Shown: piece after piece, positions 4,592 through 45,869 of the stretch
Layout of the letters: every line of letters starts with the position of its first letter
How positions within the stretch are numbered: position 1 is the stretch's first letter
DNA from: Trueperaceae bacterium
GTDB lineage: Bacteria; Deinococcota; Deinococci; Deinococcales; Trueperaceae
Reading direction: 5' to 3'
Assembly (NCBI GenBank): GCA_965213925.1
Contig: OZ243927.1
Span: 704,001 to 768,000, forward strand
DNA length: 64,000 nt
Program-made: the position numbers and the translations under genes
The notes under the pieces: model-generated
What the model was told of the DNA's origin: nothing
Seen by the model: the letters and a program-made list of their open reading frames with translations, nothing else
Database searches by the model: none

Positions 4592-4842
4592 GTATAAACC
4601 CCCGACTTTCAGTCCAGTCGAGCTGGATGAACGATCGGCGGCTTGGAGCATAAGCTACACCGCCCTGCCTGCTTTCTCAGCCGAGGACTGACCAGCCGCG
4701 CTCCGGGGTCGGGCAGGCGAGTTCAACCAGGTGGGCGGAAGGTGTGAACACGCTTCGGGAAACCTCATGGCTTGATAGTCGAGTGCAGACAGGACGCTTC
4801 AGCGTCCCCTTCATTCCACCTGCTTTAGCTGGTAGTCAGTTG
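4592..4842. mobile_element. ORF-less IS200/IS605-like element (non-autonomous), highly structured
   Basis: Left hairpin AAACCCCCGACT-TTC-AGTCGGCGG once the 21-nt insert is removed; right hairpin CCACCTGC-TTTA-GCTGGTAG followed by CAGTTGA; several internal stems. Confidence 0.5.
4614..4634 (+). mobile_element. 21-nt micro-element copy A
   Basis: CCAGTCGAGCTGGATGAACGA flanked by T(4613)/T(4635); interrupts the CCGACT/AGTCGG stem. Confidence 0.75.
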
Positions 4843-4876
4843 AAATGACGGTAACGACAACGAAAGAACTTACCTA

Positions 4877-5293
4877 TTACCGCCGAGCCAGCGGATGGCC
4901 AGGCGCGAACTCGAGCAAATCCCACAGGTTTCCGTACAAATCCTTGAATACAGCCACCGTGCCATATTCGGCCTCTTTGGGTTCTCTTACGAATTCAACA
5001 CCTCTTGAGACCATCTCGTTAAAGTCGCGCCAAAAGTTATCGGTGCTGAGAAAGAGAAAGACCCTGCCGCCGGACTGGTTGCCGATGAAGGGTTCTTGCT
5101 CGGGCTTGGAAGCCCTGGCTAAAAGTAAGTTTGTCCCAGTGGAGCCTGGAGGCGTTACCACTACCCAGCGCTTATCTTGCTCGCTCTGGTAGGAGTCCTC
5201 GAGCAGTGTAAAGTGGAGCGTCTCGGTGTAGAACGCGATGGCTTCGTCGTAGTCTCTGACGACGAGTGCGACATGAGCGATAGACTGCTTCAT
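4877..5293 (-). CDS. VOC/glyoxalase family protein
   Basis: HVALVVRDYDEAIAFY...FKDLYGNLWDL. Confidence 0.92.
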   Translation of the reverse strand: MKQSIAHVALVVRDYDEAIAFYTETLHFTLLEDSYQSEQDKRWVVVTPPGSTGTNLLLARASKPEQEPFIGNQSGGRVFLFLSTDNFWRDFNEMVSRGVEFVREPKEAEYGTVAVFKDLYGNLWDLLEFAPGHPLARR

Positions 5294-5344
5294 GCGCCTC
5301 AGCGTAAAGCTGAAGAGGTCGCGCTTTCAACTCCCTGCGGTATT

Positions 5345-5641
5345 TTATAGAGAGCTATAGGCGGGGACGTATTCCCACAGCACGGGCGTCGGCGCGAAAA
5401 AAGGGTCGAAGACGAGGTGGAGTTCGTCCAGTGCGGCGCTGGTCAGCTCCGGGCTGAAAACTGCCCAGCCGAGCCCTTCACGCGCTCCTTCGTTGCCTTT
5501 CTCGAAACCGTAGTCGAGCAAGTCGCCGTGGCGAGCGTGCCAGACGGCTAAGGCTTTGAGTAAAAAGAGGTGTGCACCCTCTTTGATGTCGACGGCGACG
5601 AGGATGTGCTCGTCTAAGTAGCTGGGCGGTGAAACGTTCAT
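5345..5641 (-). CDS. Hypothetical protein
   Basis: ORF with host-like codon use from ATG 5641; no recognised motif. Confidence 0.5.
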   Translation of the reverse strand: MNVSPPSYLDEHILVAVDIKEGAHLFLLKALAVWHARHGDLLDYGFEKGNEGAREGLGWAVFSPELTSAALDELHLVFDPFFAPTPVLWEYVPAYSSL

Positions 5642-5817
5642 GGTCCGAGTGTAGAGGACGGTATCTGACAGAAGTCTGACAAAATTCTCAAGGGGGCTTA
5701 ACTTGAGAGAATCGTCACAGGCATCTGACTCAATGTTTTTGGTAGGTTCGGTGCTATACTGCTTGTTTAGACGTGCGGGTGGCACGTAAAATCTCTACAC
5801 CCAGCTAGGTGCACATC

Positions 5818-6993
5818 ATGACCCAGGTACGTAACTTTTTCTCTTGGCTCTTCACCGAGCTGCGCGACTCTTTGGTGGAGACCTTCGGGCTCTTTGACCC
5901 GGAGACTACAACAAGAGGTGTGCTCGCCGACGCGCTCAACCAACTGCTCGTTTCCACGCTCCTCGTTCTACTTTTCGTAGGCGTCTATATCGCACTCCGT
6001 TCAGGGCTGCGCTTCGTCTTAAAACGTACCAACCTGAGCAGCAGCATCACGGGACCGGTCACGGTGGCGCTACGCTACATGATGATCGTGCTCGGAGGCT
6101 TAGCGGTGATGTCGCAACTCGGCGTGCCCAACCAGTTTTCCGCGAACGCGGCGCGCGCCGCTGTAGTTGCGTTCCTCTTCTATTTAGGCTGGATCATCTC
6201 GCAAAAACTGCTTAGCAACGTGACGGGGCGCTACAGCCTCGATCAGTCTATCTTGCAGCTTCTACGCAACGTCGTCTCGGTGGTACTCGTCGCGTTCGGC
6301 GTCGCCGCAGTCCTTTCGCAGTTCGGGGTAGACATCGTGGCGGCGGTAGGGGCTCTAGGCATCGCGGGCATCGCGGTGGGCTTCGCGGCGCAAGACACGC
6401 TGTCGAACTTTATCTCGGGCGTGACCCTTCTTGTCGAGCGACCCTTTCGCATCGGTGATTGGGTCGAAATCAATGGGCAGGTCGGCAAGGTCAAAGAGAT
6501 CACGCTGCGCAACACGCTCCTCGTAACCCGCGACAACATCGTGACGCATATCCCCAACGCGAGCGTCGGCTCCTCGGATATCATCAACTTCAGCGCAGGG
6601 GGACCGCTCCGTATCAACGTGCCGATTGGCATCGCCTACAAAGAATCTGCAAAACACGCCCGCAAGGTCATCATGCCGATTCTTCAAGCGGACGAGCGCG
6701 TAATGCGTCTGCCCGCGCCGAGCGTCCGGCTGGTCGAACTCGGCGACTCGTCCGTAAACCTTATGATGGTCTACTGGATCGAGCCGAGCAACATCGCCAT
6801 CGAGCCGAAGATCAGCGCAGACATTTTAGAGGCGAGTAAAGAGGCGCTAGACGAAGCGGGCATCGAGATTCCCTTCCCGCATCTGCAGCTCTTCATCGAT
6901 GGAGCCAGCGGGCTCAAGCCCGTAATGGAGCCGCTTTACTCGGTGGAGCAGCCGCGGCAGGTTGCAAATTCAGCGAGTCAGCTCAGCAAGTAA
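5818..6993 (+). CDS. mscS: Small-conductance mechanosensitive channel (MscS family)
   Basis: GIAVGFAAQDTLSNFISG, RPFRIGDWV, GIEIPFP; extra N-terminal TM segments. Confidence 0.9.
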   Translation: MTQVRNFFSWLFTELRDSLVETFGLFDPETTTRGVLADALNQLLVSTLLVLLFVGVYIALRSGLRFVLKRTNLSSSITGPVTVALRYMMIVLGGLAVMSQLGVPNQFSANAARAAVVAFLFYLGWIISQKLLSNVTGRYSLDQSILQLLRNVVSVVLVAFGVAAVLSQFGVDIVAAVGALGIAGIAVGFAAQDTLSNFISGVTLLVERPFRIGDWVEINGQVGKVKEITLRNTLLVTRDNIVTHIPNASVGSSDIINFSAGGPLRINVPIGIAYKESAKHARKVIMPILQADERVMRLPAPSVRLVELGDSSVNLMMVYWIEPSNIAIEPKISADILEASKEALDEAGIEIPFPHLQLFIDGASGLKPVMEPLYSVEQPRQVANSASQLSK

Positions 6994-7012
6994 CTTGCTA
7001 TTCCTCTACATA

Positions 7013-8371
7013 TCAGAAGAAAAGGCTCAGCACAAACACCGTTGTCATCCCCGTCACCCCCGCTATCGCCGAGCCCACCGTCTGCAAGCGGTACGCCTGC
7101 GACACGTCCATCCCTGAAAATTGACTCACCACCCAGAAGAAGCTGTCGTTCGCGTGCGAGACCGTCATCGCGCCCGCGCCGATGGCTAGCGTGGTTAGCG
7201 CCAAGCCGACGCCAGACCCTAACCCAATCGTGCCCACAAGCGGCGCGACGATGGCGGCGGTGGTCACGATGGCAACCGTCGAGGAGCCTTGGGCCGTTTT
7301 GAGGGCTGCGGCGAGCAAAAAGGGCAGAAAGATACCGAGGCTGGCGAGAGCTAAGTTTTGCTCCAAAAAGTCCGTGATCGGCGTACTTCTAAGCACGCTC
7401 CCTAACGCCCCGCCTGCCCCAGTAATCAGGATAATCGGTCCGGCGATGCGCAGCGACCTCATGACCGCGTCTTGCGTCAACTCTTCTCCGCGCACCTGCG
7501 CCGTGACGAAAAACGCGACGAACACGCCGATGAGAAGCGCCGTATTGGGGTCGCCTAAGAACCTGAGCAGCGCGGCGAACGCGCCGTCGCCGAAGGGTGC
7601 AGCGGGCAGCGACGCGACCGAATTAAGCGCGATGAGAACGATCGGCAAGAGAATCGGCAGGAAGGCGCGCCACGCTGCGGGCGGATTTTCCGAGCGCGAT
7701 TTGGCAGTCTTCTCAGCTTGCGCTTCCCCTTCAGGTGTCGCGGTATCCGGGTCGATAAAGATGCGTTCGCCCATCCAGCGGGCAAAGAGGTAGGTCGTGA
7801 GCAAAACAGGTACAGTCGTGACGAGACCTAGGATAATGACGAGCCCAACGTCCGCGTTGAGCGTGCCCGCCGCCGCAATCGGACCCGGCGTCGGCGGCAC
7901 AAAGACGTGCGTGGTGTAGAGCCCCATACTAAGCGCTACGGCGTACACCGCCATCGAACGCTCCGCTTTGCTCGCGAGTGAGCGGGCGAGCGGCGCGAGG
8001 ATGACGAAGCCGGAGTCGCAGAACACAGGAATCGAAACGACCGAGCCCGTGATGCTCATCGCTAGCACCGAGCGAGCTTGACCGACCCAGCCGATGATCG
8101 TATCCGCCATGACCTGTGCGCCGCCGCTACGCTCCAGCACCACCCCGATGATCGTCCCTGCCGCGATGATAATGCCAATGGAGCCAATCGTCCCGCCGAA
8201 CCCATCCGTAATCGCGGTGAGAACCTCGCCGGGCGGAAGGCCTGCGAGTAGCCCCAAGCCGTACGCCGTCACAAGGAGAACGAGAAAGGGGTGGAGCCTG
8301 AACTGGGCTGTCGCAAAGACGATAAAGACGATCGCGGCGATGAGGAGTACAATCAGGAACCAACCGGACAT
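7013..8371 (-). CDS. GntP family permease
   Basis: LHPFL, IPVFCDSGFVIL, VPPTPGP, KTAQGSSTVA, SHANDSFFWVV; AAGGAGG before ATG 8371. Confidence 0.9.
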   Translation of the reverse strand: MSGWFLIVLLIAAIVFIVFATAQFRLHPFLVLLVTAYGLGLLAGLPPGEVLTAITDGFGGTIGSIGIIIAAGTIIGVVLERSGGAQVMADTIIGWVGQARSVLAMSITGSVVSIPVFCDSGFVILAPLARSLASKAERSMAVYAVALSMGLYTTHVFVPPTPGPIAAAGTLNADVGLVIILGLVTTVPVLLTTYLFARWMGERIFIDPDTATPEGEAQAEKTAKSRSENPPAAWRAFLPILLPIVLIALNSVASLPAAPFGDGAFAALLRFLGDPNTALLIGVFVAFFVTAQVRGEELTQDAVMRSLRIAGPIILITGAGGALGSVLRSTPITDFLEQNLALASLGIFLPFLLAAALKTAQGSSTVAIVTTAAIVAPLVGTIGLGSGVGLALTTLAIGAGAMTVSHANDSFFWVVSQFSGMDVSQAYRLQTVGSAIAGVTGMTTVFVLSLFF

Positions 8372-8540
8372 AAGCGCCTCCTTTTGGTCATGCACCTTTT
8401 ATCCACGTAACTTTTCATCCACGCAATTCTGTAGAGACGCTCATCATTAAGCAACGCCGCCACACGAATAGTAGCGCCATTTACAGAGATAGCCCTTTAC
8501 GGATATGTCGGTGAGCGTGACTTGTTTTACTACCTTATCC

Positions 8541-8990
8541 TTACTCGAGCTTCTCAAACTCTTCATCAAGCTCCGCATAGATAGTTTCAGCGAGGCGCTG
8601 CGCTTGCGGTGTTCCTTGAATAGAAACCCTCGTCCGCCTTTCCCCCGCTTCGCTCAGCCGGACGTCAATTTCATGCACGTCCGGCTCCGCATTGGAACCC
8701 AAAAACCCCGACGCGCTCGATTCGGCTTGCGCGGAGACGCTCTGCGGGGGGCTGCTCGAGGTAATCACCCAAGGTCCAGAGGGTGCACGTTCGTAACCGT
8801 CTAACCCACCAGGATTGTAAGTAGGCACGCCGGGCGAGGCGGAGATTGTTCGTAAGACGGTCTCGTAGACTTCCTCTTGTGCCCCTCGGTAAGTCACAGG
8901 CACAGGCACGACAGGTAGTTGTTCGGTTGCAGGGACGCAGCTTGTGAGGATGAGTAAACCGAAAATAACGGAGAGGTTAAGGCGCTTCAT
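8541..8990 (-). CDS. Putative lipoprotein
   Basis: Signal peptide with lipobox LTSC. Confidence 0.7.
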   Translation of the reverse strand: MKRLNLSVIFGLLILTSCVPATEQLPVVPVPVTYRGAQEEVYETVLRTISASPGVPTYNPGGLDGYERAPSGPWVITSSSPPQSVSAQAESSASGFLGSNAEPDVHEIDVRLSEAGERRTRVSIQGTPQAQRLAETIYAELDEEFEKLE

Positions 8991-9015
8991 GGTGTTTAGA
9001 GTTTAACAGAGCTTG

Positions 9016-9082
9016 TCAGCTAGTCAGCATTTCAGCCAGTCAAGTTTTCCTGATTAGCTGAAACGCTGACTAGCTGAAATGC
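9016..9082. repeat. TCAGC-unit short tandem repeat hairpin
   Basis: TCAGCTAGTCAGCATTTCAGC...GCTGAAACGCTGACTAGCTGA inverted arrangement. Confidence 0.75.
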
Positions 9083-9193
9083 TCCTCTACCTTAACCGCG
9101 GAACCTTTTGCGCCACTCTCAGACTGTGACGCCTTACCCCTTTGTCCCCTCTCCTCTACTTCTTCACGAAGCTTGGCGTTAGACTGTAGCATT

Positions 9194-10306
9194 ATGATCG
9201 AGAAGCTAGAAAACCTTAGAGGTGAGTTTGCGGCGCTCGAGCAGTCACTAGGCGATCCCGACTTGCTCAGCGACCAGACGCGCTACCGTGAGGCGATGCA
9301 GCGCTACAGCGAGTTGCAGAGCATCGTCAAAGTGTATACCGAATATAGAGATGTGCTCTCAGGGATAGAAAACGCGAGAGAAGCCTTGTCTGACCCTGAA
9401 TTAGAGGAGATGGCGCGGGAGGAGTTGGAGAGCTTAGAGGCGCAGAAAGTGGTGCTCGAGGATCGGCTCGAGACCCTCCTCTTACCCAAAGACCCCTTCG
9501 ACGACAAAAATGTCATCATCGAAATACGCGCCGCTGCGGGCGGCGACGAAGCGTCCCTCTTCGCCGCTGAAGTCTTGGGCATGTACCAGCGCTACGCCGA
9601 GGCGCTAGGGTTCAAAACGGAAGTCATCGACTCGTACGCCAACAGCGTCGGCGGGCTCAGCAAGGTCAACTTTGAGATCACGGGGCGCGGCGCGTACAGC
9701 AAGTTCAAGTTCGAATCGGGCGTGCATAGGGTCCAGCGCGTGCCCGAAACCGAGACGCAAGGGCGCATTCATACGAGTACGGTCACCGTTGCAGTCTTGC
9801 CCGAAGCCGAAGACGTGGACGTGAACCTCTCGCCGAGCGACTACCGCGTGGATGTCTACCGCTCGTCGGGACCGGGCGGGCAGTCGGTCAACACGACGGA
9901 TTCAGCGGTGCGCATCACCTATAAGCCCGGCACCTCCGATGAAATCGTCGTGACCTGTCAAGACGGTAAGAGTCAGATAAAAAACAAGGAGAAAGCGCTG
10001 ACCGTTCTCCGGGCGCGGCTTTTGGAGCGCGAGCGCGAGCGGGCGGCGTCGGAGGCGAGGGAGGCGCGGCTCGTGCAGATCGGCACGGGCGAGCGCAGCG
10101 AGAAGATTCGCACGTACAACTTCCCGCAGTCTCGCGTGACAGACCACCGCATCGGCTACACCACGCATAATCTTAATGACATCATGACGGGCAAGGTGAA
10201 CGAACTCACCGAAGTCTTGAGCGAGGCGGAGCAGGCGCAGCGTTTAGATGAGATGGGCAGTAATCAAGGTAGTGAGACCAGCCATGTGAGCCGTGGCGCG
10301 GCGTGA
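9194..10306 (+). CDS. prfA: Peptide chain release factor 1
   Basis: GVHRVQRVPETE (PxT motif) and GGQ (SSGPGGQSVNTTDSAVR). Confidence 0.97.
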   Translation: MIEKLENLRGEFAALEQSLGDPDLLSDQTRYREAMQRYSELQSIVKVYTEYRDVLSGIENAREALSDPELEEMAREELESLEAQKVVLEDRLETLLLPKDPFDDKNVIIEIRAAAGGDEASLFAAEVLGMYQRYAEALGFKTEVIDSYANSVGGLSKVNFEITGRGAYSKFKFESGVHRVQRVPETETQGRIHTSTVTVAVLPEAEDVDVNLSPSDYRVDVYRSSGPGGQSVNTTDSAVRITYKPGTSDEIVVTCQDGKSQIKNKEKALTVLRARLLERERERAASEAREARLVQIGTGERSEKIRTYNFPQSRVTDHRIGYTTHNLNDIMTGKVNELTEVLSEAEQAQRLDEMGSNQGSETSHVSRGAA

Positions 10307-10766
10307 GTTCGTCGTTGCCGCCGCAATCTTGCTCGACCCGAGGGGTCGGGTGCTTTTGGTCGGCAACGACTGGCAGGGCTACGGGCACGTCCGCTACACC
10401 TTGCCAGGGGGCGTGGTCGAGCGCGGCGAGTCCACGATTGACGCACTTTCCAGAGAGGTGATGGAAGAGACAGGACTGAGAGTGACGCACATCAAACACT
10501 TGGCGTACTCAGTTCATGTCGAGGACATGCGGCGCAACGACCGGGCGATTTCGTTCGCATTTGTCGCGGCGTATGACGGACTTTTGAACCCGCGCGACCC
10601 CGACGGCTTCATCGTCGAGGCGCGGTTCTTTCCGGTGGAAGAGGTCGAGACGCTGATTCCTATTCCGCCGCTACGTGAGCCACTTGCAAACTACCTGCGA
10701 GATGGTAAAACAGGGAGATTCTACACCTATGCAGGGTGGGACGGACGAGGGGGAAAACGAGTATGA
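10293..10766 (+). CDS. NUDIX hydrolase
   Basis: Nudix box GGVVERGESTIDALSREVMEETGL. Confidence 0.9.
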   Translation: MARREFVVAAAILLDPRGRVLLVGNDWQGYGHVRYTLPGGVVERGESTIDALSREVMEETGLRVTHIKHLAYSVHVEDMRRNDRAISFAFVAAYDGLLNPRDPDGFIVEARFFPVEEVETLIPIPPLREPLANYLRDGKTGRFYTYAGWDGRGGKRV

Positions 10767-11176
10767 GCGACTATTACAACAACGATAACACCAGCGGAAA
10801 CTACGGCTCCTACGACTACGGCAATGAGAAGTCCTTTCAGCGCGACCTCAACGAGATGCGCCGCCTAGCCGAACTCTTAGACGAGGCGATCAAAATTCCC
10901 GTTGTCAACTACCGTGTCGGCTTGGACGCACTTCTAGGGCTCGTGCCCGTGATCGGCGACTTTAGCGGCTTCGCGATTTCTAGCTACATCATCTTCAAGG
11001 CGCACAACATGGGCGTGCCGCGCGAGAAGGTCTCGCGAATGGTTTTTAACTCCTTAGTAGACGTGCTCGTCGGCAGCATCCCCTTAGTCGGCGATATTTT
11101 CGACCTCTTCTGGAAGTCGAACAAGCGCAACTTGCGCATCGTCGAGCGGCACTTCGCGTCGTACTCGGCGACCTAA
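10763..11176 (+). CDS. DUF4112 domain protein (copy 1)
   Basis: RVGLDALLGLVPVIGD...GSIPLVGDIFDLFWKSNKRN. Confidence 0.85.
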   Translation: MSDYYNNDNTSGNYGSYDYGNEKSFQRDLNEMRRLAELLDEAIKIPVVNYRVGLDALLGLVPVIGDFSGFAISSYIIFKAHNMGVPREKVSRMVFNSLVDVLVGSIPLVGDIFDLFWKSNKRNLRIVERHFASYSAT

Positions 11177-11270
11177 CTCGGGGACGCAACGTAGGAGCAG
11201 CGGCGGAGCTGCTCCTTTTTTACACGCTTTCTACACATGACGTTATCTCACAACGAAACCGTGATGACCT

Positions 11271-11810
11271 ATGCCTAGAAACATGCCTAAAAACACGCGC
11301 AAAAATACAACCGTAGATTCAGCTAAGAAGAGAGAGAAGCTCGAGACCTTAAAACAGCTCCGCAGCTTAACGCACACGCTGGATAACGCCTTTGAAATTC
11401 CGGGCACCGGCTACCGCGTGGGTTGGGACGCGATTGTCGGGCTCATTCCCGGTGTCGGCGACGCGATTATGCTCGTGCCGTCGGGTTATATCGTCTACCA
11501 AGCGTATCGCCTCGGCGCGCCGAGAAGCACGCTGGTACGGATGGTTTTTAACTTGGGTCTGGAAACGCTCGTAGGGAGCGTTCCCCTCATCGGCGACCTC
11601 TTCGACGCGACGTGGAAATCCAACATGAGGAACCTCTACCTCTTGGAACAGCACCTGGGACCGTCCGATGAGGTGATGTTCAAGAAGCCCTCGAGTAAAG
11701 GTCCGGTTCTCCTCTTGCTAGGCGCATTGGCGGTTTTAGGTGGCGGCATCGTACTCGTCGTTTGGCTTTTAGTGTGGCTTTTTCAGCGGATCAACTTTCC
11801 CTCAGCGTAA
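11271..11810 (+). CDS. DUF4112 domain protein (copy 2, C-terminal TM)
   Basis: RVGWDAIVGLIPGVGD...GSVPLIGDLFDATWKSNMRN. Confidence 0.85.
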   Translation: MPRNMPKNTRKNTTVDSAKKREKLETLKQLRSLTHTLDNAFEIPGTGYRVGWDAIVGLIPGVGDAIMLVPSGYIVYQAYRLGAPRSTLVRMVFNLGLETLVGSVPLIGDLFDATWKSNMRNLYLLEQHLGPSDEVMFKKPSSKGPVLLLLGALAVLGGGIVLVVWLLVWLFQRINFPSA

Positions 11811-11811
11811 A

Positions 11812-12459: not shown

Positions 12460-12532
12460 GGTGAGAAGAGGATACCTCGAGCCCCGCCAGCTTACTTGGT
12501 TTAAGAGGTCACGACGAGTTCAACCCACCGCT

Positions 12533-13078: not shown

Positions 13079-13130
13079 AGTGAGATTATAGCAAAGGCAC
13101 ACTTAAATACACCTGCCCCAATATGCTTAC

Positions 13131-13687: not shown

Positions 13688-13751
13688 AGCAATGAGCAAT
13701 GAGCAACGAGTCTAAATTTCACTCGTTGCTCATTGCTTTCAACTCATTGCT
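13688..13751. repeat. AGCAATG-type heptamer hairpin
   Basis: AGCAATGAGCAATGAGCAACGAGT...ACTCGTTGCTCATTGCTTTCAACTCATTGCT just after the icd stop. Confidence 0.85.
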
Positions 13752-13756
13752 AATTC

Positions 13757-22595: not shown

Positions 22596-22713
22596 AGCAA
22601 TGAGTTGAAAGCAATGAGCAATCCAGTCAAGCTGGTTACGCAGTCTCCCGAAGGGAACGAACGGTGAGTCTAAAGCCTTTCACTCATTGCTCATTGCTCG
22701 TTACTCATTGCTC
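22596..22713. repeat. AGCAATG heptamer hairpin carrying 21-nt micro-element copy B (22623-22664) with nested 21-nt insert (22636-22656)
   Basis: AGCAAT-CCAGTCAAGCTGG[TTACGCAGTCTCCCGAAGGGA]ACGAACGG-TGAG. Confidence 0.85.
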
Positions 22714-22714
22714 G

Positions 22715-23221
22715 TTAGTGCCAATCCTGCGGCGCACTCAGCTCGCCGCGCTTATTCCCTTTGATGAGGTCGACGGCGTGCGGCAAGATGTCGATAATGG
22801 CTTCCAAGGACTCCTGCGCCCCTTTGGGGCTACCTGGCAAGTTGACGATCAAGGTGCCACGTCGGACGCCCGCGACGCCGCGAGAGAGCGCCGCCTTGCG
22901 GTTTTGCTGCATTCCCGTAAGGCGCATCAGTTCGGGCAACCCTGGCACTTCGCGCTCGATGACCTCTAAGGTAGCGTCCGGCGTGCGGTCACGGAGCGCT
23001 AAGCCTGTGCCGCCTGTGGTCAACACGAGGTCGACGGCGTCCGACTCCGACCAGACGCGCAGTTTCGAGCGGATGACGGCTTGCTCGTCGGGGACGACTT
23101 GATAGTCCACTTCGGTGAAAGGTCCGGTGGCTAAAAGCTGGCGAATTTCCAAAGCGGAGGTGTCGGCGCGTTCGCCTTTTGCGCCCTTGTCGCTGGCGGT
23201 TAAAATAGCGGTTCGAATCAT
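22715..23221 (-). CDS. mog: Molybdopterin adenylyltransferase (MogA/MoaB family)
   Basis: TTGGTG, RDRTPDAT, LSRGVAG, NLPGSPKG; TATGCT 6 nt before ATG 23221. Confidence 0.92.
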   Translation of the reverse strand: MIRTAILTASDKGAKGERADTSALEIRQLLATGPFTEVDYQVVPDEQAVIRSKLRVWSESDAVDLVLTTGGTGLALRDRTPDATLEVIEREVPGLPELMRLTGMQQNRKAALSRGVAGVRRGTLIVNLPGSPKGAQESLEAIIDILPHAVDLIKGNKRGELSAPQDWH

Positions 23222-29379: not shown

Positions 29380-29671
29380 TACATCGTTAAGCAAGGAATG
29401 CGGCACGGTTGTCACCCCGTTCACGAAGTACGGCGAAGCACGGTTGTCGAAGGGTCCCGTTTGGCTATGCCAAAACTCCGTAATTAGCTGTGCTAAAACT
29501 TCATAACTTGCAATCTCAGCTAGAGGAGAAGGCGAATGCAGAGATTCTTTCACGGAATCCTACGTTCATCGTAGGGCGGAGTCTATCCTACACTCGCCAT
29601 AGGGTGGAGTCTATCCTATAGCTCGCTGTAGGGTTCAGAATGACATACTTCATTTTTTAGCTGACAGTGTG
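29380..29671. mobile_element. MITE-like element copy 2
   Basis: TACATCGTTAAGCAA...TTAGCTGACAGTGTG; shares internal sequence with 22275-22552; three tandem hairpin units at 29553-29633. Confidence 0.65.
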
Positions 29672-32802: not shown

Positions 32803-32874
32803 AGCAATGAGCAACCCAGTCAAGCTGGTTACGCGGTCTCCCGAAGGGAACGAACGGCGAGCGACGAGCAACGA
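32803..32874. repeat. AGCAAYG heptamer array with 21-nt micro-element copy C (32816-32857) and nested insert (32829-32849)
   Basis: AGCAAC-CCAGTCAAGCTGG[TTACGCGGTCTCCCGAAGGGA]ACGAACGG-CGAG. Confidence 0.85.
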
Positions 32875-38205: not shown

Positions 38206-39111
38206 ATGCGTAATATTACCCTTAGCCCTGGTACGTCAGCGAGCGATTCCTCGAACGGCAGCGTGAGCGAAGGTCGCCTTCCTGACTTCGTCATTATCGG
38301 CGCGATGAAGTGCGGCACGACGAGCCTCTACGACTACCTGAACTTGCACCCTGAAGTCTCGATGTCGCACCCTAAAGAACTCAACTTCTTCACCCAGCAT
38401 CAGCGCTGGAGGTTAGGGGTCGACTGGTACAAAGACCGTTTTGCCCCTAAAGATGAGGCGTGCGCGGCGCGTGTGAGGGGCGAAGCGTCGCCCAATTACA
38501 CCCGCCATCCGCTCTTTCCCGGCGTGCCCGAGCGGATGTGTCAGGTTGTGCCGAACGCTAAACTTATCTACTGCGTGCGCGACCCGGTTTCGCGCGCCAT
38601 GTCACACTACGTCCACGACTACTCGATAGGCGAGCAAGACAGACCCTTCGCCGAAGCGGTGCTCGACGAGAAAGAGGCGTACCTCTGGTGTAGTCGCTAC
38701 TTTCATCAGCTAGAGCAGTACTTAAAGGTTTACGATGCGTCGCAGATCAAGGTCGTCGTGTTGGAGGATATGAAAGAAAAGCCGTATGAGACGCTGGGTG
38801 AGGTGTTCGCGTTTTTGGGCGTGGACCCGAGCTACCGAGACGAGCGTTTTAGGTCGTCCTCCGGCACGATGCCGAGCGCGAAGGCGCGGCGGCGCAACTT
38901 CGTTAAGAGCTGGATGCGGCGCAACGGTGTGCGCGGTATGTATTGGCTCGAGCGCAACCTCCCGTGGGTTCTCGGCCGCCCCATCAAGCAGCCTGAAATC
39001 AACGAGGAACTCCACCGAAAGCTGCTCGGGGCGCTAGAGGACGACACCCAAGCCTTTCGCGCATTGACGGGGCTCGAGCTTCCGTGCTGGCGCTGGGTTC
39101 CGCCCCGGTGA
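38206..39111 (+). CDS. Sulfotransferase
   Basis: PDFVIIGAMKCGTTSL (5'-PSB), GEASPNY, RDPVSRAMSHY (3'-PB). Confidence 0.92.
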   Translation: MRNITLSPGTSASDSSNGSVSEGRLPDFVIIGAMKCGTTSLYDYLNLHPEVSMSHPKELNFFTQHQRWRLGVDWYKDRFAPKDEACAARVRGEASPNYTRHPLFPGVPERMCQVVPNAKLIYCVRDPVSRAMSHYVHDYSIGEQDRPFAEAVLDEKEAYLWCSRYFHQLEQYLKVYDASQIKVVVLEDMKEKPYETLGEVFAFLGVDPSYRDERFRSSSGTMPSAKARRRNFVKSWMRRNGVRGMYWLERNLPWVLGRPIKQPEINEELHRKLLGALEDDTQAFRALTGLELPCWRWVPPR

Positions 39112-39161
39112 GCGGGCGCTCGGATTTACTCAGGCTCGAGCGTACAGGTTATAAGGCGTCG

Positions 39162-39968
39162 CTAAAATTCGTCGGGGAAGTTGAACCCGCCCGCCGGACG
39201 TACAGGTTCCCTTTCGGAGTCTGAGCGGCTATCCTCTTGCCAGTCGCGACTTGCAAACGCGGCGACCTTTTCGCGGCGTTCGCGCTGCGCCTCTTGCGCT
39301 TGGCGCTCCTGCCAAGAGCGCTCGCGCAGCCTGCTGACGTGGGCGCTCGCGAGTTGCCGAAAAGGGGTCAGGGTTTGACCCAAGGGTGAGACTTTGTAGC
39401 GGGCATCCCAGGGTTCGAATTCGAAGCTCGCTTGCAGCGAGACGTAGCGTTTGCTGCTCCCCGAGAGGTAGAAGTAGAGCGTGAGCTTGCCCTCTTCGCC
39501 GTCGAACTGTGGCAGGGTCTCTTTAACCACCACCGACGCCTCGGGACCGACGATTTGCGCGGTTTCCAAGGTGAGCGGCACGTCCATGTCGGGCGTTTTT
39601 AGGGCGACCTCTAAGAGTTGAACGGGGTACATGTTGAGGTTGCTGACCGTCATGCGCAGGGCGTGACTGACAGGGCGCATAAGTGCGTTGCCGCGCCCCT
39701 TCTCGTCTTGTTCGACGTAGTCCTCGAGCACGCGGATTTCGCCTAGCGACACCAGCAGTTCGGGTTTGCTCGGCGCGGGCTCTTCAGGACGGCGGCGGCG
39801 CAGAAGCATCGAGAGAAGTAGAAGGATGAGGAGCCCGACAGCGACCATGCCCCACGTCAGCGGGTCTAAACGCTGCAAGGTAGACTGTGCCGTGGGCGAC
39901 AAGAGGGTCCAGAGGTTGGAGAAAAATGACGTGACGCTGTTCCACATCATCTCGAGCGTGCGTACCAT
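39162..39968 (-). CDS. Hypothetical membrane-anchored protein
   Basis: Single TM followed by RRRRP; TAAGCT 5 nt before ATG. Confidence 0.72.
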   Translation of the reverse strand: MVRTLEMMWNSVTSFFSNLWTLLSPTAQSTLQRLDPLTWGMVAVGLLILLLLSMLLRRRRPEEPAPSKPELLVSLGEIRVLEDYVEQDEKGRGNALMRPVSHALRMTVSNLNMYPVQLLEVALKTPDMDVPLTLETAQIVGPEASVVVKETLPQFDGEEGKLTLYFYLSGSSKRYVSLQASFEFEPWDARYKVSPLGQTLTPFRQLASAHVSRLRERSWQERQAQEAQRERREKVAAFASRDWQEDSRSDSEREPVRPAGGFNFPDEF

Positions 39969-40204
39969 ACCCTAGCTTATACCGCACAGAGGTGAAAGAG
40001 GCGTAAGTGCGGGGCAAATCCCCTCTTTTTTAAGGTTCTATGAAGTTTTTCACCGCCGTAGCAGGTATGATTTGGTCATAAACGCGCTCAGAAGACATCC
40101 TTTCGCACGTGCGTTCAGGGACGATGTCCGCGCGATGTGAACTCAGTAAGGTTGAAAGACCTTTTATTGATTCCAATTCTCAGCGAATGTATAGCCGAGC
40201 ATAT

Positions 40205-41200
40205 TCAACGCTCGAGTTTAGGCCACGTACCGGGCTTAGCGTGTTCGGGTCGCCAGTCGTGCGGAACGCGGTGCTCCGCCGCCGCGACTAAGCGGCGTTC
40301 TTTCGTCCCTTGCTCGACTCGCCAACGCGCCGCCTCGGAGCGCTGCATCTCCCTAAGCAAAGGTGCGATGAGGTCTTCGGGTGCTAACTCGAACACGTGC
40401 GCGCTGTAGTCTCTGAACCAGGGGCTCGAGCCCAGATACTCCGCCACCTCGCCCTCCAAAAGTCCGTCATTGAGCATCAGGGCGTAGGCGAAGATGCGCT
40501 TCATGCCGTGCCAAGCGACGCGTTCAGGCTCCCGCGTCCACCGCTCGTAGCGCTGCAGCGCCGCCCTAAGTGCCACGTTCGGCTCCGTCATCGGCGCGCC
40601 GTGCCCCGAGCACGCCCAGCGTGCCCGCAGCCGTAAAAGCCGCTCCAGAGAGTCCATCGCCCGCTCGACCGCGCCGACGCCCTCCCGGAACGGGTTGAGC
40701 CACGCCACGTCGTCACCGTGCACCGCGTCGCCGCAGATCAGGGTTTTTTCGCGCTCCTCGAAGAGTGAAATATGTCCGAGCGTATGCCCCGGTGTATGGA
40801 GCACACGCAGCATCACGCCGCCCGCTGAAATCTCGTCGCCATCGGTGAGAAACCGGTTCACCGTGTAAGGTTCGATGGGTTGACGCAGCCACCTCGCGCC
40901 GCACGCCTCTTTGTCGCGGTTATTCACAACGCCCGCTTCCCAGCGGTGCGCGGCGATGGGCAGGCTGTAGCGCGTCTGCAAATCGAAGTTGCCGCCCGCG
41001 TGGTCGCTGTGATAGTGCGTGTTTACGATCAGCGCTAGGCGTTCGGCAGGCACGCCCGCGCTGTAGAGCAGCGCCCGCGTCTGCGCGGCGTCGCTACCGA
41101 AACCCGTGTCGATGAGCACAGGGGTCTCGCCTCTGACCAAGACCATGTTCGCGCTCAGGAAGGTGCGCTCGAAGAGGTGGAGCCAGGCGGGTTGAGCCAT
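40205..41200 (-). CDS. Metallo-beta-lactamase fold hydrolase
   Basis: THYHSDHAGG, HTPGHT, GDA, GHG. Confidence 0.92.
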   Translation of the reverse strand: MAQPAWLHLFERTFLSANMVLVRGETPVLIDTGFGSDAAQTRALLYSAGVPAERLALIVNTHYHSDHAGGNFDLQTRYSLPIAAHRWEAGVVNNRDKEACGARWLRQPIEPYTVNRFLTDGDEISAGGVMLRVLHTPGHTLGHISLFEEREKTLICGDAVHGDDVAWLNPFREGVGAVERAMDSLERLLRLRARWACSGHGAPMTEPNVALRAALQRYERWTREPERVAWHGMKRIFAYALMLNDGLLEGEVAEYLGSSPWFRDYSAHVFELAPEDLIAPLLREMQRSEAARWRVEQGTKERRLVAAAEHRVPHDWRPEHAKPGTWPKLER

Positions 41201-41291
41201 GCCTTAGTGTAACGCCTTTAGCCGACGGGGGTTTTGGTGTCCGTCCTCGAGACCTGCTCTTTTCCACGCAGAGCTACTAATTTAGCCGCCC

Positions 41292-41837
41292 TCACGCTCG
41301 AGAGTTCATGTGAAGTAAAAGCCCGGTGAGCGCTAGACCGTCCGTTATCTCGCGCTTTCGTATCCGTTCCCTAAGCTCGTTTAGCCTAAACCACCGCACG
41401 CCCTGTATCTCGTTCTCGTCAATAGCGCCGCCTTTCTGCCCTGCTCTGCACCTCACGATGTGGACGGTCATGTTCGATATACCGTTGAGCGGGTTGTAGG
41501 TGTAGAGATGTTCGAAATCATGAGTGTCGTAACCCGTCTCTTCACGGACCTCCCTAACCGCCGCGTCTACAACAGTCTCGCCCTCTTCTACGCCACCTGC
41601 AGGCAACTCCCAGCGGCTCTGGGTCGGATAATGCGCGACGCGCTCCACAAGGATGTGTCCCTCGCTGTCTTCGACGATCACCGCGACTGCGCCGCGCTCA
41701 AAGTCTAAGAGGTGATAATGCTCAATGAGGTGTCCGTTAGGCATCGCCACCTTGTCCCGGTAAAGATTCACCCACGGACTTTCGTAGATGACGACTCTGC
41801 TAAGACGCTTCGGCAATGGTTCGCTAGAAGAACTCAT
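41292..41837 (-). CDS. NUDIX hydrolase (ADP-ribose pyrophosphatase-like)
   Basis: WELPAGGVEEGETVVDAAVREVREETGY. Confidence 0.9.
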   Translation of the reverse strand: MSSSSEPLPKRLSRVVIYESPWVNLYRDKVAMPNGHLIEHYHLLDFERGAVAVIVEDSEGHILVERVAHYPTQSRWELPAGGVEEGETVVDAAVREVREETGYDTHDFEHLYTYNPLNGISNMTVHIVRCRAGQKGGAIDENEIQGVRWFRLNELRERIRKREITDGLALTGLLLHMNSRA

Positions 41838-41853
41838 CTAAACGTTGCGGACC

Positions 41854-43203
41854 TTACCGCGCTTCGGCTAAGCGCTTCGCCTCTAACCAGTCGTGCACCG
41901 CGTCTACATTGTCGGGCGTGGTGACGATGAAGAGGTGGTCGCCGTGCTGGATTTTCGTCTCGCCGTCGGGGATAAACACGTCGTTTTTGCGCAGCACTGC
42001 CCCGATGAGGCTGTCGGGGGGTGCGCCTAGGTCGCGGATGCGCCCGGTTTCGCATTGGTAGGGATACGAGACCTCCATCACTTCGGCGCGGTCTTCGATG
42101 CTGGCTAAGTGGTCGACGGCGTCCGCCTCTAACCAGTTCAAGACCTCTTGTACGGCGGCGGTGCGCGGCGCTAAAGAGGTGTCGATGCCGACGCGCTCGA
42201 AGAGGCGGCGGTTGCGCGCCCTGGCGACGCGCGTAATGACTTTGGGGATGCCTAACTGCTTGCCCAAAAGCGAGGTGAGCAGGTTTTTGCTGTCGTCGTT
42301 CGTGACCGCGACGAGCACGTCGGCGTCCTCGACGCGCTCCTGCTCTAAAAGCTCTAAGTCGGTGCCGTCGCCGCGCAGTACGAGCACTTTGGGCAGAAAC
42401 CGCGCCAAATCCTCGCTGCGTTTTTCGTCCATTTCGATGACGGTGATGCGGGCTTGGCTCTCCTGGAGCTTCTCCGCCACCATAAAGCCGACGTTGCCGC
42501 CGCCGACGATGGTCACGTTCGGGCGGCGTTTGCGCGGCGCGAAGCGCGACTCGACCTCCCTCATGCTCGGCACGGTGCCCATAAAGATAACCTTATCGTC
42601 GGGGCAGAGCACCGTCTTACCCGAGGGAATAATAAAGGACTCGCCGCGAATCGAACCGACGATAAGCGCGCTTTTTGGTAGCTTGATGTCGCTCAAGGGT
42701 TTGCCTGTAAAGGGGTCTCCCTCTTCTAATTTGTACTCCAAAAGCTGAATCTTTTTGCCCGCGAAAAAGGTGCTGTCCACGGCTCTAGGCACCTGCACGA
42801 TGTCCACGATTTGATTCGCCAAGATGCGTTGGGGCCAGAGCATCCGGTCGATCATCAGCCCGACGCCCTCCATCATGCCCGCCTCGGCGAACGCCTCGAC
42901 GTAGCGCTTGCGCGTCACGAACGCCATCGTCTCCTTTGCGCCTAAGCCCTTCGCGGCTAAGCACGCGAGCACGTTGATGTCGTCATTCACCGTGCACGCG
43001 ATAAAGGCGTCCGCCTTATCCGCGCCTGCGACGCGCAGGTCTTTGGGGTCTGCGCCGTTACCCTGGATAAAACGCACGTCAATCGTTTCGAAGGCGTTCG
43101 AGCGCTCTCCATTTGTGTCAATTACCGTCACGCTATGCGCGTGTTGCAGCGCCTCTGCAACCTGCGAGCCGATTTCACCACCACCAACAAGCACGACATT
43201 CAT
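41854..43203 (-). CDS. trkA: Trk system K+ uptake protein TrkA
   Basis: Two RCK_N/RCK_C pairs (GGGEIG, GGGNVG), 449 aa. Confidence 0.92.
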   Translation of the reverse strand: MNVVLVGGGEIGSQVAEALQHAHSVTVIDTNGERSNAFETIDVRFIQGNGADPKDLRVAGADKADAFIACTVNDDINVLACLAAKGLGAKETMAFVTRKRYVEAFAEAGMMEGVGLMIDRMLWPQRILANQIVDIVQVPRAVDSTFFAGKKIQLLEYKLEEGDPFTGKPLSDIKLPKSALIVGSIRGESFIIPSGKTVLCPDDKVIFMGTVPSMREVESRFAPRKRRPNVTIVGGGNVGFMVAEKLQESQARITVIEMDEKRSEDLARFLPKVLVLRGDGTDLELLEQERVEDADVLVAVTNDDSKNLLTSLLGKQLGIPKVITRVARARNRRLFERVGIDTSLAPRTAAVQEVLNWLEADAVDHLASIEDRAEVMEVSYPYQCETGRIRDLGAPPDSLIGAVLRKNDVFIPDGETKIQHGDHLFIVTTPDNVDAVHDWLEAKRLAEAR

Positions 43204-43573
43204 GGGCTAAGCATACACGATGACGGGAGGGTCCGCCGGGTTATGTGCGTCATGCTGAGTAGATTCAAGAAGAAAGAATACAGAAGGCAGAATAGAAGCG
43301 CCTTCCCCTTCTTTATGTTGTATCTTCTCTACACTCGGCTGACTTTCGGAACATTACCCACTAAGAATTCAGAGTTTTACTCGAGGCCCGAAACTCCATC
43401 ACAACTGCGCTATAGAACCCGTACAATCTGCTCTAAGTAGCTGTTTGGCGAGGAAAATGTTACCGAGAGGTTGCTCGAGCTAAGGCTTGCGCGAACGTCT
43501 CCGAGCCGACAGGTGATAAGCTGCGAGCTGTGCGGCGCACTCCTTTAGACCACATCACTCGGCGGACCATTTC

Positions 43574-44917
43574 ATGAGCGGGCGTCCGACCCGCAGAACC
43601 CTCTCGCCTGCTACGGTTATCGCGCTTTCGTTCGGCATCACCGGGCTTATCGGTACGCTCCTCTTGTGGCTGCCCTGGTCGCACGCGCCGGGCGAAGATT
43701 TGACGCTCCTGGACGCGCTTTTTACCGCCTCGAGCGCGCTGTGTGTCACCGGGCTCATCGTCGTAGATACGGGCACCGCCTGGAGCCCCTTTGGTCAGAG
43801 CGTCATCATGATCTTGATTCAACTGGGCGGTTTGGGGCTCATCACCTTCGGCACGCTCTTCGCGCTGGCGCTGGGGCGGCGCGTCGGCTTTGGCGAAAGG
43901 ATGCGCGTCGCGGAGCAGGTCAAAGCTTTTCAGGTGGGCGGCGTGGTGCAGTTGGTACGCAACATCGTCCTGCTCTCGCTGGGCGTGGAATTCGTCGGCG
44001 CGCTGCTCCTCTACCCCGCGTTCGCCGCCGAGGAGGGCGCGGGCGCAGGCGCGTTCTACGCCCTCTTTCACAGCGTCAGCGCCTCGAACAACGCGGGCTT
44101 CGCCTTTTACGGCGACTCCTTGTCGCGCTTCGTCGGCGATCCGCTCGTAAACATCGTGATCACTGGGCTTTTTATTTTAGGTGGGCTCGGCTTCATCGTG
44201 CAGGTGAATTTGATCGGCTACGCGCGAAATAGGCGGCAGAACCGCCTGACGCTGCACACCAAGATCGTCCTAGTCGTGACGGCGGTGCTCTGCTTGCTGG
44301 GCTTTGGGGTGGTGGCGGCGCTCGAGTGGAACAACCCCGCCACGCTAGGCGAGTTGCCCTCAGGCGCAAAGCTTTGGGGCGCGTTCTTTCAGGGCGTGAC
44401 CCCACGCACGGCGGGGTTTAATACGGTCGACATCGGCTCGATGGAGAACCCCACCCTCATCTTCACCATGCTGCTGATGTTCATCGGCGGCTCGCCGGGC
44501 TCGACGGCGGGCGGCATCAAAACGGCGACGTTCTTCGTGCTCGCAGCGAGCGCCTGGAGCATGGTGCGTGGTTACGGCGAGCTGACGATCTTCGGGCGGC
44601 GCGTCAGCTCGCAGACTGCGATGAAAGCCGACACCGTCGTCCTGCTGAGCAGCGGCATCGTCATCGCGGCGCTTTTTCTTCTAAGCATCACCGAGAGCGT
44701 CGAACTCCTGCCCCTCGCCTTCGAGACGATGTCCGCCTTCGGCACGGTAGGGCTTTCGATGGGCTCGACGGGCGAGTTGAGTGTGGTCGGTCAGCTTGTC
44801 GTCATCGCGCTGATGTATCTGGGGCGCGTCGGTCCTCTGACGTTCGCGCTCGCGATCGTGCAAGAGCCGCGCGGAGGTGACATCAAGCATCCGGAGGAAG
44901 AGGTGCTTATCAGTTAG
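43574..44917 (+). CDS. ktrB: KtrB-type K+ uptake membrane protein
   Basis: SALCVTGL, SASNNAGF, PRTAGF, SAFGTVGLS pore motifs. Confidence 0.92.
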   Translation: MSGRPTRRTLSPATVIALSFGITGLIGTLLLWLPWSHAPGEDLTLLDALFTASSALCVTGLIVVDTGTAWSPFGQSVIMILIQLGGLGLITFGTLFALALGRRVGFGERMRVAEQVKAFQVGGVVQLVRNIVLLSLGVEFVGALLLYPAFAAEEGAGAGAFYALFHSVSASNNAGFAFYGDSLSRFVGDPLVNIVITGLFILGGLGFIVQVNLIGYARNRRQNRLTLHTKIVLVVTAVLCLLGFGVVAALEWNNPATLGELPSGAKLWGAFFQGVTPRTAGFNTVDIGSMENPTLIFTMLLMFIGGSPGSTAGGIKTATFFVLAASAWSMVRGYGELTIFGRRVSSQTAMKADTVVLLSSGIVIAALFLLSITESVELLPLAFETMSAFGTVGLSMGSTGELSVVGQLVVIALMYLGRVGPLTFALAIVQEPRGGDIKHPEEEVLIS

Positions 44918-44921
44918 AAGA

Positions 44922-45023
44922 AGCAATGAGTACCGAGCAACGAGCAATGAGTGAACCTCAGAAGCTTTTCACTTTCAACTCACCGTTCGTCCAGCTCGAC
45001 TGGATTGCTCGTTGCTCATTGCT
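44922..45023. repeat. AGCAAYG heptamer hairpin with 21-nt micro-element copy D (44983-45003, minus)
   Basis: Reverse strand AGCAAT-CCAGTCGAGCTGGACGAACGG-TGAG; no nested insert. Confidence 0.85.
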
Positions 45024-45075
45024 AAAATACTTCTGAATGTGAAGCATAAGGAAAGGTCTCGAGGTATCTACAATC

Positions 45076-45732
45076 ATGAAAACGAAACAGTTTCTCGTTA
45101 TCGGCGCGGGCCGCTTCGGCTCGGCGCTCGCGACTACTCTCTACGATTTAGGACACGAGGTCGTCGTTGTGGACTCCCGTGAAGACGCCGTCGAGACGAT
45201 CATGAACGGTGTGACGCACGCCGCTATCTTGGACGCGACGGATGAAGAGGCGCTTACGAAGCTCGGCTTAGACACCTTTGACCAGGTCATCGTCGCTATA
45301 GGCAACAACTTTGAAGCGAACATCCTCGCCACCGTCGCCGCGAAGAATCAGGGCGCGAAGCGCGTCGTGAGCAAGGCGACGAGCAATATGGCTGCGAAGG
45401 TCCTTTCGCAAGTCGGCGCAGACGAGGTCATTCGCCCGGAGCACGATATGGGCGTGCGGCTCGCCAAGCAGCTCGCCACACCGGGCATCGTGGACGCCTT
45501 TAACTTAGGCGATGACCATGAAGTTATCGAGTTCGAAGCGCAGAGCAAGCTCTGCGGACGCTTAGATCAACTCAAGCTCACCAACCGCTTCGGCGTGCAA
45601 GTCGTCGCGGTCAACCGGGACGGTAAGTTGGAGGTGAGCCCACGGGCTGACTTTGAAATTCGCCCGAAAGACCGCGTTGTGCTTATTGGCGAGTCCGATT
45701 CTATTGAGAGCTTGCGCAACTATCTCGAGTAA
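45076..45732 (+). CDS. ktrA: KtrA-type K+ uptake regulatory subunit
   Basis: GAGRFG, single RCK_N plus RCK_C, PEHDMG. Confidence 0.9.
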   Translation: MKTKQFLVIGAGRFGSALATTLYDLGHEVVVVDSREDAVETIMNGVTHAAILDATDEEALTKLGLDTFDQVIVAIGNNFEANILATVAAKNQGAKRVVSKATSNMAAKVLSQVGADEVIRPEHDMGVRLAKQLATPGIVDAFNLGDDHEVIEFEAQSKLCGRLDQLKLTNRFGVQVVAVNRDGKLEVSPRADFEIRPKDRVVLIGESDSIESLRNYLE

Positions 45733-45736
45733 GGCA

Positions 45737-45869
45737 GCAATGAGGAACGAGCAATGAGTGAAAATCTTTAGACTCATTGCTCACCGTTCGTTCCTTTCGC
45801 ATTCGCGAAAACTACGTAAGCGGAAGCTAAAGCCACCAGCTTGACTGGATTGCTTTCAACTCATTGCTT
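45737..45869. repeat. AGCAATG heptamer hairpin with micro-element copy E (45784-45848, minus) and 44-nt nested insert (45792-45835)
   Basis: Reverse strand AGCAAT-CCAGTCAAGCTGG[44 nt]ACGAACGG-TGAG. Confidence 0.85.

Follow-up and report, generated by a model that had tools for sequence, protein, structure and literature searches.

The stretch of DNA analysed here (hereafter the window) spans 64,000 nucleotides of the genome of a Trueperaceae bacterium (contig OZ243927.1, positions 704,001 to 768,000) and contains five loci carrying copies of a very short, hairpin-forming repeat that we have called family A. All five copies sit between open reading frames (ORFs, counted from 120 aa upwards). 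A first-pass annotation of the window had described five copies of a 21-nt element, and all five loci proved genuine, the 21-mer itself being contiguous in two of them and the other three being nested composites. When up to two mismatches were tolerated, the contiguous 21-mer was found in the window only at 4614-4634 (plus strand) and 44983-45003 (minus strand), against 0.00 occurrences expected from 100 shuffles. At the remaining loci its left half CCAGTCAAGCTGG and its tail ACGAACGG are both there but apart, separated by 21 nt at 22636-22656 and at 32829-32849 (a second micro-element, family B) and by 44 nt at 45792-45835 (family C, itself carrying family F at 45796-45819). The interrupted copies are split at CTGG^A, and the nesting in the window goes up to three deep.

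Copy 1 (4613..4634, plus strand) is an intact 22-mer (T + CCAGTCGAGCTGGATGAACGA) of the T15/A21 variant, followed by a T at 4635. It occupies the 3' arm (CAG^TCGG) of a host hairpin (4602..4638, plus strand) that reads CCGACT-TTC-AGTCGG without the unit. Copy 2 (22622..22664, plus strand) lies in the left arm of a heptamer palindrome (approximately 22596-22717) and is split at CTGG^A by a family B element of 21 nt (TTACGCAGTCTCCCGAAGGGA; 22636..22656, plus strand). Copy 3 (32815..32857, plus strand) starts with C instead of T (variant C0), has C on both flanks and is split at the same point by another family B element (TTACGCGGTCTCCCGAAGGGA; 32829..32849, plus strand). Copy 4 (44983..45004, minus strand) lies uninterrupted, with all its 22 nt, in the right arm of the heptamer palindrome at 44915-45030. 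In copy 5 (45784..45849, minus strand) there are three levels of nesting, a family C element (TGGCTTTAGCTTCCGC...AGGA; 45792..45835, minus strand) being inserted at CTGG^A and holding in its triloop a family F element of 24 nt (TTACGTAGTTTTCGCGAATGCGAA; 45796..45819, minus strand). The two unoccupied targets that the annotation had pointed out are also there, an empty heptamer hairpin at 3642..3676 and an empty heptamer palindrome at 13688..13755.

The bases flanking the family A copies are T/T at four of the loci and C/C at the fifth (32815/32858). Taking out the unit plus one base (by eye) restores an uninterrupted host sequence at every locus, as had been proposed: one of the heptamer sites GAGCAATGAG or GAGCAACGAG in four cases and, for copy 1, the 6-bp stem CCGACT/AGTCGG with its loop TTC at 4602-4638.

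The 22-nt unit and its nested partners

The frame of family A is T-CCAG-TCRAG-CTGG-A followed by YGAACGR, i.e., 22 nt made of a hairpin (TCCAG-TCRAG-CTGGA) and a 7-nt tail. The unit thus has its own hairpin, as first described, with a true frame of 22 rather than 21 nt and a stem of 5 bp rather than CCAG/CTGG alone. Its ends, TCCAG... and ...GAACGR, are not inverted with respect to each other, in agreement with the absence of terminal inverted repeats noted before. The additional base at the left was recognised by comparing the focal genome (G000) with one of the two sister genomes of the same genus (G001 and G002; the genus thus comprises three species here). A filled site in G001 reads AAGCAA-C-CCAGTCGAGCTGG-G-CGAACGG-TGAG and its empty counterpart in G000 GAGCAA|TGAG, so the left base travels with the unit.

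We have pooled 136 unique family A copies (from G000 and from fetched loci in other genomes, after removal of nine coding-like chance hits) for the analysis of the stem and the flanks. The left base (position 0) is T in 117 of them and C in 19. Position 14 is a G in 8 of the 19 C0 copies and in 2 of the 117 T0 copies (six mis-parsed copies with nested family E were set aside). The C0/G14 pairing is a compensatory change that extends the stem to TCCAG/CTGGA or CCCAG/CTGGG; DNA folding gives the 5-bp stem a predicted energy of -3.5 kcal/mol. The base that follows the unit equals its first base in 115 of the 136 copies as parsed (T/T 105, C/C 10), far above chance, and six more pooled copies, which are mis-parsed nested ones, are likewise T/T. 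A duplication of 1 nt would account for this junction base, and so would a crossover or microhomology base shared by both sides. The left T or C also extends the stem and co-varies with position 14 (T:A or C:G). One-base identity cannot decide in favour of duplication; of the 1-nt target duplication first suggested, the flank identity holds and the duplication is inseparable from the other two possibilities. A further trend, in which the base before the unit co-varies with Y15/R21 (A with C..G 82, G with T..A 19, G with C..G 16, A with T..A 14), was not relied on, being confounded by self-nesting and tandem arrays. A search of the window against Rfam matched no family.

The focal genome holds 21 exact copies of the 21-mer and about 70 family A copies in all when the split ones are included. 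A search with the left half gave 100 matches, of which 54 have a recognisable tail and 18 or 19 more look genuine by their flanks, the remainder being chance or coding matches; an alternative filter gave 66 copies. The group with a tail consists of 23 intact and 31 split copies, the latter broken nearly always exactly at CTGG^A. The inserts belong to families B, C, D or E and are 19-24 nt long each. All four families share one architecture, with T as the first base, A as the last and a 3' hairpin whose loop has three bases. The deepest nesting seen in this genome reaches four levels. Families C, D and E were found only inside family A, while F appears in hairpin triloops (those of B, C and others), where it follows GC or GG. 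Family A in turn nests inside B, after TTAYGTAA, and in Anaerolineae it inserts into itself at CCAG^TCAAG and forms head-to-tail arrays with a period of 22 nt.

The target rules of families B to F are exact but different from those of family A (CTGG^A in one case, GC^A within triloops in the other). All family A targets have just one base in common, the T (rarely C) at the junction. In the genus, the base preceding the unit is A in 62 of 74 copies, and the site GCAA^TGAG holds at least 55 of the 74. Nearly all the targets are hairpin-forming repeats.

Movement of family A

The comparison with the sister species, whose genomes are syntenic with the window (72-92% DNA identity over the matched pieces), supplied the empty orthologous sites that a mobile element should leave. 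Site 4 holds the unit in G000, whereas G001 lacks exactly these 22 nt. In the same palindrome, G001 has a composite of A and C in the opposite arm, where G000 is empty, and site 2 shows the same mirror-arm pattern between these two genomes, the insertions in opposite arms being independent of each other. Site 5 is lacking in both relatives. At site 3, G002 carries the unit unsplit and G000 carries the unit plus family B, an exact 21-nt filled/empty pair for B. No orthologue of site 1 was found, as there is a break of synteny at this point in both G001 and G002.

Paralogous sites within the focal genome tell a similar story. The heptamer sites that remain empty number 242 (190 GAGCAATGAG and 52 GAGCAACGAG) versus 19 filled, and other host repeat families in G000 also have both filled and empty members. 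Copies were found as well within two insertion sequence (IS) genes. One interrupts an IS3-like transposase gene (G000:C1:1242271, context ACGCCA^TGAGCGAC). The other case is an IS982-like element of 995 bp, present in four copies that are 99.8-99.9% identical, each with the 22-mer inside the transposase ORF (context TTTCGA^TGATGAAC). The two ORF pieces of this element match positions 2-133 and 134-154 of PF13612, i.e., the DDE domain is split between 133 and 134. No intact copy of the 995-bp element was found in G000, and the element itself is absent from G001 and G002. It may have multiplied in spite of the broken gene through repeated hits at a hot site, conversion or trans-mobilisation. The frameshift of the transposase within the DDE domain is seen at G000:C1:3607411-3608405 (locus L087) and in the three other copies.

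Family A is therefore mobile. Its insertion is precise to the nucleotide, terminal identity never exceeds one base and the ends are not inverted; such insertions have occurred repeatedly after the three species of the genus separated. The proposal that this is a very small mobile DNA aimed at hairpin or repeat DNA is borne out by these data. Neither is the unit a fixed part of one longer repeat: its hosts include heptamer arrays, the two IS transposase genes, other repeats and other micro-elements.

Distribution and candidate enzymes

All three genomes of the genus carry the exact 21-mer (21 copies in G000, 11 in G001 and 26 in G002). The 38 other genomes examined from its family and order are without it, and reversed-pattern controls gave 0 matches. 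A scan of public genomes (one per species) returned at least 86 loci, 80 of which were listed. Among these listed matches, some 61 come from Anaerolineae, Chloroflexia and other Chloroflexota, five from a metagenome-assembled genome (MAG) labelled Trueperaceae, three from a Zixibacteria MAG and one from a MAG labelled Alphaproteobacteria, and about ten are coding-like chance matches without T/T flanks, in actinomycetes and others; no cyanobacterial record is among the 80. In the listed Trueperaceae MAG the element has the same heptamer context as in the window, which fits its placement in Deinococcota. Two matches to viral contigs were discarded as a shared coding-like context and not the element. 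The 21-mer is letter-identical in scattered Chloroflexota and Zixibacteria. Even so, its occurrence is patchy: among 81 sampled Anaerolineae, only one (G042) was enriched for the tail motif (30 versus 7 in the control). Many other modules in Chloroflexota have the same tail behind different hairpins. This patchy distribution across phyla, together with the letter-perfect conservation, implies horizontal spread and a sequence-specific recognising factor.

Two further carriers outside the genus (the assemblies outside it are G041-G045, of which G042 and G044 are Anaerolineae) have all of their family A copies on one strand at a single locus per genome, eight in G041 (L122, G041:C6:36000-54000) and six in G045 (L123, G045:C31:118000-132024). 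Both loci are made of short, unrelated ORFs on the same strand, including toxin-antitoxin-like and acetyltransferase-like genes, with spacers of 350-450 nt that are mosaics of small hairpin modules with a ACGAACGG-type tail. Because both assemblies encode an integron integrase elsewhere, L122 and L123 are probably cassette arrays.

No mobilising enzyme for family A was identified in the searches made. The profile panel comprised five carriers (G000, G001, G002, G042 and G044). In this panel, putative transposases of the Rpn/PD-(D/E)XK type (TIGR01784) gave no match at all, and the integron integrase (TIGR02249) stayed below cut-off in G000-G002 and gave no match at E 1e-40 in G042 and G044. 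Reverse transcriptase (RT, PF00078) was found in G000 and in none of the other four. The focal genome has four group-II-intron-like RT ORFs of about 620-640 aa (G000:C1:291528, 2670406, 3430718 and 3475506). The genes flanked by pairs of copies in G000 are ordinary genes only, plus an IS3-like gene, and its multi-copy ORFs are IS982/IS5-like, IS1, IS3, ISL3 and group II RT, with no HUH enzyme among them.

A partial but unbiased screen was also carried out, in which 1494 ORFs from 575 kb (about 19%) of G042 were compared with G000 by tblastn. Matches were obtained for 145 of the 1494, the best one for an aldo/keto reductase (66.5% identity), and no enzyme acting on nucleic acids was conspicuous among them. 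Of the 96 ORFs lying no more than 2.5 kb from a G042 copy, 68 were searched against Pfam and proved to be accessory genes (GNAT, PEMT/ICMT, beta-lactamase fold and others), with one TatD as the only nuclease.

A possible mode of insertion and related systems

The best explanation of these observations is, in our opinion, that family A is a non-coding and non-autonomous mobile micro-element of 22 nt within a layered system of hairpin elements of 20-24 nt (families B to F) that are inserted with precision into one another and into palindromes of the heptamer repeats, and we regard this as probable. How it moves can be stated more tentatively. We lean towards movement as a single strand, by a trans-acting strand transferase that recognises the hairpin, as a plausible route falling somewhat short of an even chance. 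Single-strand insertion is favoured because of the small size, the lack of inverted ends, the exactness of both ends, the hairpin placed at a fixed distance from the 3' end and the hairpin-forming targets; the first two features also argue against synapsis of double-stranded DNA. The unit would move as single-stranded DNA after an enzyme acting in trans had recognised hairpin plus tail and cut both ends, and this enzyme would then join it ahead of an unpaired T (rarely C) in targets prone to extrude hairpins, such as heptamer palindromes, other micro-elements and attC-like and REP-like repeats. Such an enzyme might resemble the HUH-type strand transferases, acting on a minimal substrate of hairpin and cleavage tail, in a focal genome with no recognisable Y1 transposase. 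A wider and more doubtful version, which we find possible though on the whole unlikely, is that family A, like the elements nested with it, represents the minimal substrate (a single hairpin and a tail of 7 nt) of an undescribed single-strand DNA insertion system that would have spread horizontally over Deinococcota, Chloroflexota, Zixibacteria and the cyanobacterial small dispersed repeats (SDRs, see below), with an enzyme outside the transposase families tested.

Several results weigh against the best explanation given above. The profile of the Y1 transposase (Y1_Tnp, PF01797) found nothing in G000, G002 and G042, and when three Y1 proteins were compared with G000 by tblastn, the lowest E value was 0.012. 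The Y1_Tnp family was consequently rejected as the mobiliser: it is missing from these three carriers, and the single match in G001 is a domain within a methyltransferase-like ORF. Of the candidate enzymes whose co-occurrence had been proposed as a check, RT does not track the element, and the same holds for the integron integrase and the Rpn-type nucleases. In G043 and G044 there are Y1 genes, and some copies lie 0.4-3 kb from RAYT-like genes, in REP-like repeats that are also found empty; the Y1 proteins of these two genomes are about 34% identical to each other, many other repeats are around, and the proximity may merely reflect a liking for REP-like targets. The Y2_Tnp profile (PF04986) had no match in the five carriers, which says little as its control was silent too. 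Taken alone, the energy of the hairpin is weak and does not differ significantly from that of shuffled sequences (z between -1.0 and -1.7). The copies in G000 have no bias of gene orientation (9 co-directional versus 18 opposite, p = 0.12), and the GC skew of its main contig is flat, so that origin and terminus cannot be placed and a replication-strand bias is not readable. Neither an excision product nor a single-stranded intermediate has been observed so far.

Two loci with Y1 domains are worth describing by themselves. At L191 (G043:C113:12500-19500), REP-like composite repeats lie on both sides of a RAYT-like Y1 gene. This repeat is empty beside the gene (GGACGATGCCCTAAAGGG|TGCTTCGCG) and filled by family A three times at a distance of 2-3 kb. 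At L106 (G001:C4:3784734-3788051, minus strand) there is an ORF like those of type IIG restriction-modification enzymes, with Eco57I, N6_Mtase and TaqI_C domains and an in-frame Y1_Tnp domain (IS200-like/RAYT-like, residues 467-571) bordered by KGLKPL/KGLQPL peptide repeats. The ORF has the appearance of a host enzyme into which a transposase gene has been built in frame. The peptide repeats may correspond to the palindrome AAGGGGTTGCAACCCCTT, of which G000 has about 30 copies.

Most family A copies lie in mutually homologous heptamer contexts, so gene conversion could spread them too, and this leads to the first of the alternatives, namely that the copies spread by short-patch homologous recombination, gene conversion or single-strand annealing among repeats, with new sites arising rarely and illegitimately. 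Most copies in the genus do occupy the same position of near-identical heptamer units, several of the other hosts are repeat families with filled and empty members, and some of the non-heptamer right flanks are heptamer-like, for example TGAGCGAC in the IS3-like gene. It is hard to see such a process at work in sequence unrelated to these repeats, yet there are insertions in the IS982-like ORF, the 4602 hairpin, attC-like and REP-like repeats of other phyla, the unit's own loop and the 22-nt tandem arrays. Besides, the mirror-arm insertions require strand-specific recognition of the site, and families B to F are equally exact at different targets. We consider this alternative improbable.

Slightly less credit still can be given to template switching by a host polymerase during replication or repair. 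Where hairpin DNA is nicked or a fork has stalled, the polymerase would change to another copy and come back, hairpins marking the beginning and the end, and no dedicated enzyme would be needed. That none was found in the five carriers fits this, as do the hairpin-prone targets and a one-base junction identity that could be microhomology. What such a process would not be expected to produce are boundaries invariant to the base in more than 130 copies from several phyla, a patchy presence among relatives sharing the replication machinery (0 of the 38 relatives; 80 of the 81 Anaerolineae not enriched) and a letter-perfect conservation across phyla, unexpected without a specific recogniser.

An RNA route, in which a transcript is copied back by a reverse transcriptase (by retro-insertion or in a manner similar to reverse splicing), seems very unlikely. 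The G042 copies share the strand of nearly all neighbouring genes and G000 has its group-II-intron-like RT genes, but RVT_1 was found in one of five carriers, the copies of G000 follow no gene orientation and the window has no match in Rfam. Finally, an immobile binding site or terminator module conserved under selection, with the differences between genomes being deletions, would agree with the exact conservation across phyla and the intergenic location beside terminator-like palindromes, and is scarcely credible for copies that interrupt two transposase genes and other family A copies, that fill different arms of the same palindrome in sister genomes and that leave 242 target sites empty for 19 filled.

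The closest described counterparts of this micro-element are the SDRs (SDR1-8) of Nostocaceae, which range from about 21 to 27 nt. In the account attributed to Elhai and colleagues in 2008, they are said to be inserted in tandem heptamer repeats and in other SDRs, to share a hairpin structure and to be present in only some copies of otherwise identical repeats. Passages in papers citing that work give SDR5 as 21 nt, speak of SDRs as reported from Nostocaceae only, and describe them as inserted precisely at a fixed point of a short host motif, with unknown function. Family A resembles them in being dispersed, non-coding and of 22 nt (with the copy numbers in G000 given above), in lying in heptamer repeats nested with other micro-elements, and in being present or absent at equivalent orthologous and paralogous sites. 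The resemblance concerns behaviour. The carriers differ (Deinococcota, Chloroflexota and Zixibacteria versus Nostocaceae), as do the letter-identity of the family A 21-mer across phyla and its occurrence in cassette-array-like loci and 22-nt tandem arrays.

IS200/IS605 elements have no inverted ends and no multi-base duplication, carry a sub-terminal hairpin near the cleavage site and insert into single-stranded targets at a specific motif; their two hairpin ends are different and there is usually a TnpA gene in the genome. Family A likewise lacks inverted ends and multi-base duplications, has a hairpin and inserts at a short motif, but a single hairpin would have to serve both ends and G000 has no TnpA. 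Miniature inverted-repeat transposable elements (MITEs) are also non-autonomous, dispersed and present in only some copies of host repeats, but they have terminal inverted repeats, duplications of 2-10 bp and sizes of 50-500 bp, none of which applies to family A. Homing to hairpins is known from integron attC recombination and from IS and group II introns that target attC or REP sequences. Family A shares with these the preference for hairpin-forming targets, and all the copies of G041 and G045 are in cassette-array-like loci; in contrast, attC sites are imperfect palindromes of about 60 nt or more recombined by an integron integrase, whereas family A has 22 nt and no integron integrase was found in G000-G002, G042 and G044. 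REP sequences and REPINs are described as short, non-coding, non-autonomous hairpin repeats thought to be moved in trans, as single strands, by RAYT (Y1 HUH) transposases (Bertels and Rainey, 2011, PMC3116915), and the RAREFAN preprint describes vertical inheritance for REPIN-RAYT systems. The cognate RAYT gene lies in the same genome and usually has the repeats on its flanks. Family A is also a short, non-coding, non-autonomous hairpin, with some copies beside RAYT-like genes in G043 and G044. It differs in being a single 22-nt hairpin and not a doublet, in nesting, in forming tandem arrays, in its patchy distribution and in having no cognate RAYT, the Y1 gene being missing from G000, G002 and G042.

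Our literature searches retrieved no description of such elements in Deinococcota or Chloroflexota. Family A is a new family, not a new category; it comes from phyla new for such elements, and the evidence for it is unusually clean. Elements of 20-27 nt can encode nothing and are too short for synapsis as duplex DNA, and how they move has reportedly been an open question since the cyanobacterial description of 2008. This locus shows that Deinococcota and Chloroflexota have them too, and that sister species can differ cleanly in having an allele filled or empty. It also adds a compensatory change in the stem, by which the 22-nt unit is defined, and an exact target rule for each nested family. 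The same 21-mer is shared across phyla, yet among relatives it is confined to one genus versus 38 genomes without it, which makes an unbiased search for co-occurring genes realistic. If the undescribed single-strand system were real, the genus would offer a clean comparative handle on the enzyme (3 of 3 versus 0 of 38). In practical terms, the units inactivate transposase genes by disrupting them, alter terminator-like palindromes and cause short-read assemblies to break wherever a copy lies.

The focal genome is rich in other short repeats as well. They include CCAGATGATACCTGCTA with about 80 copies, ATGTCATTCTGAAC/GAGC with about 65, arrays of the heptamer AGGACTG and the palindrome GTAGGGGCGATTCATGAATCGCCCCTAC with about 30; in the window, other short repeats are located at 62320-62336, 63707-63753 and 29572-29633. 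Finally, CGGAGTCTATCCTA has 33 copies in G000 and in the window lies within a 28-nt tandem repeat.

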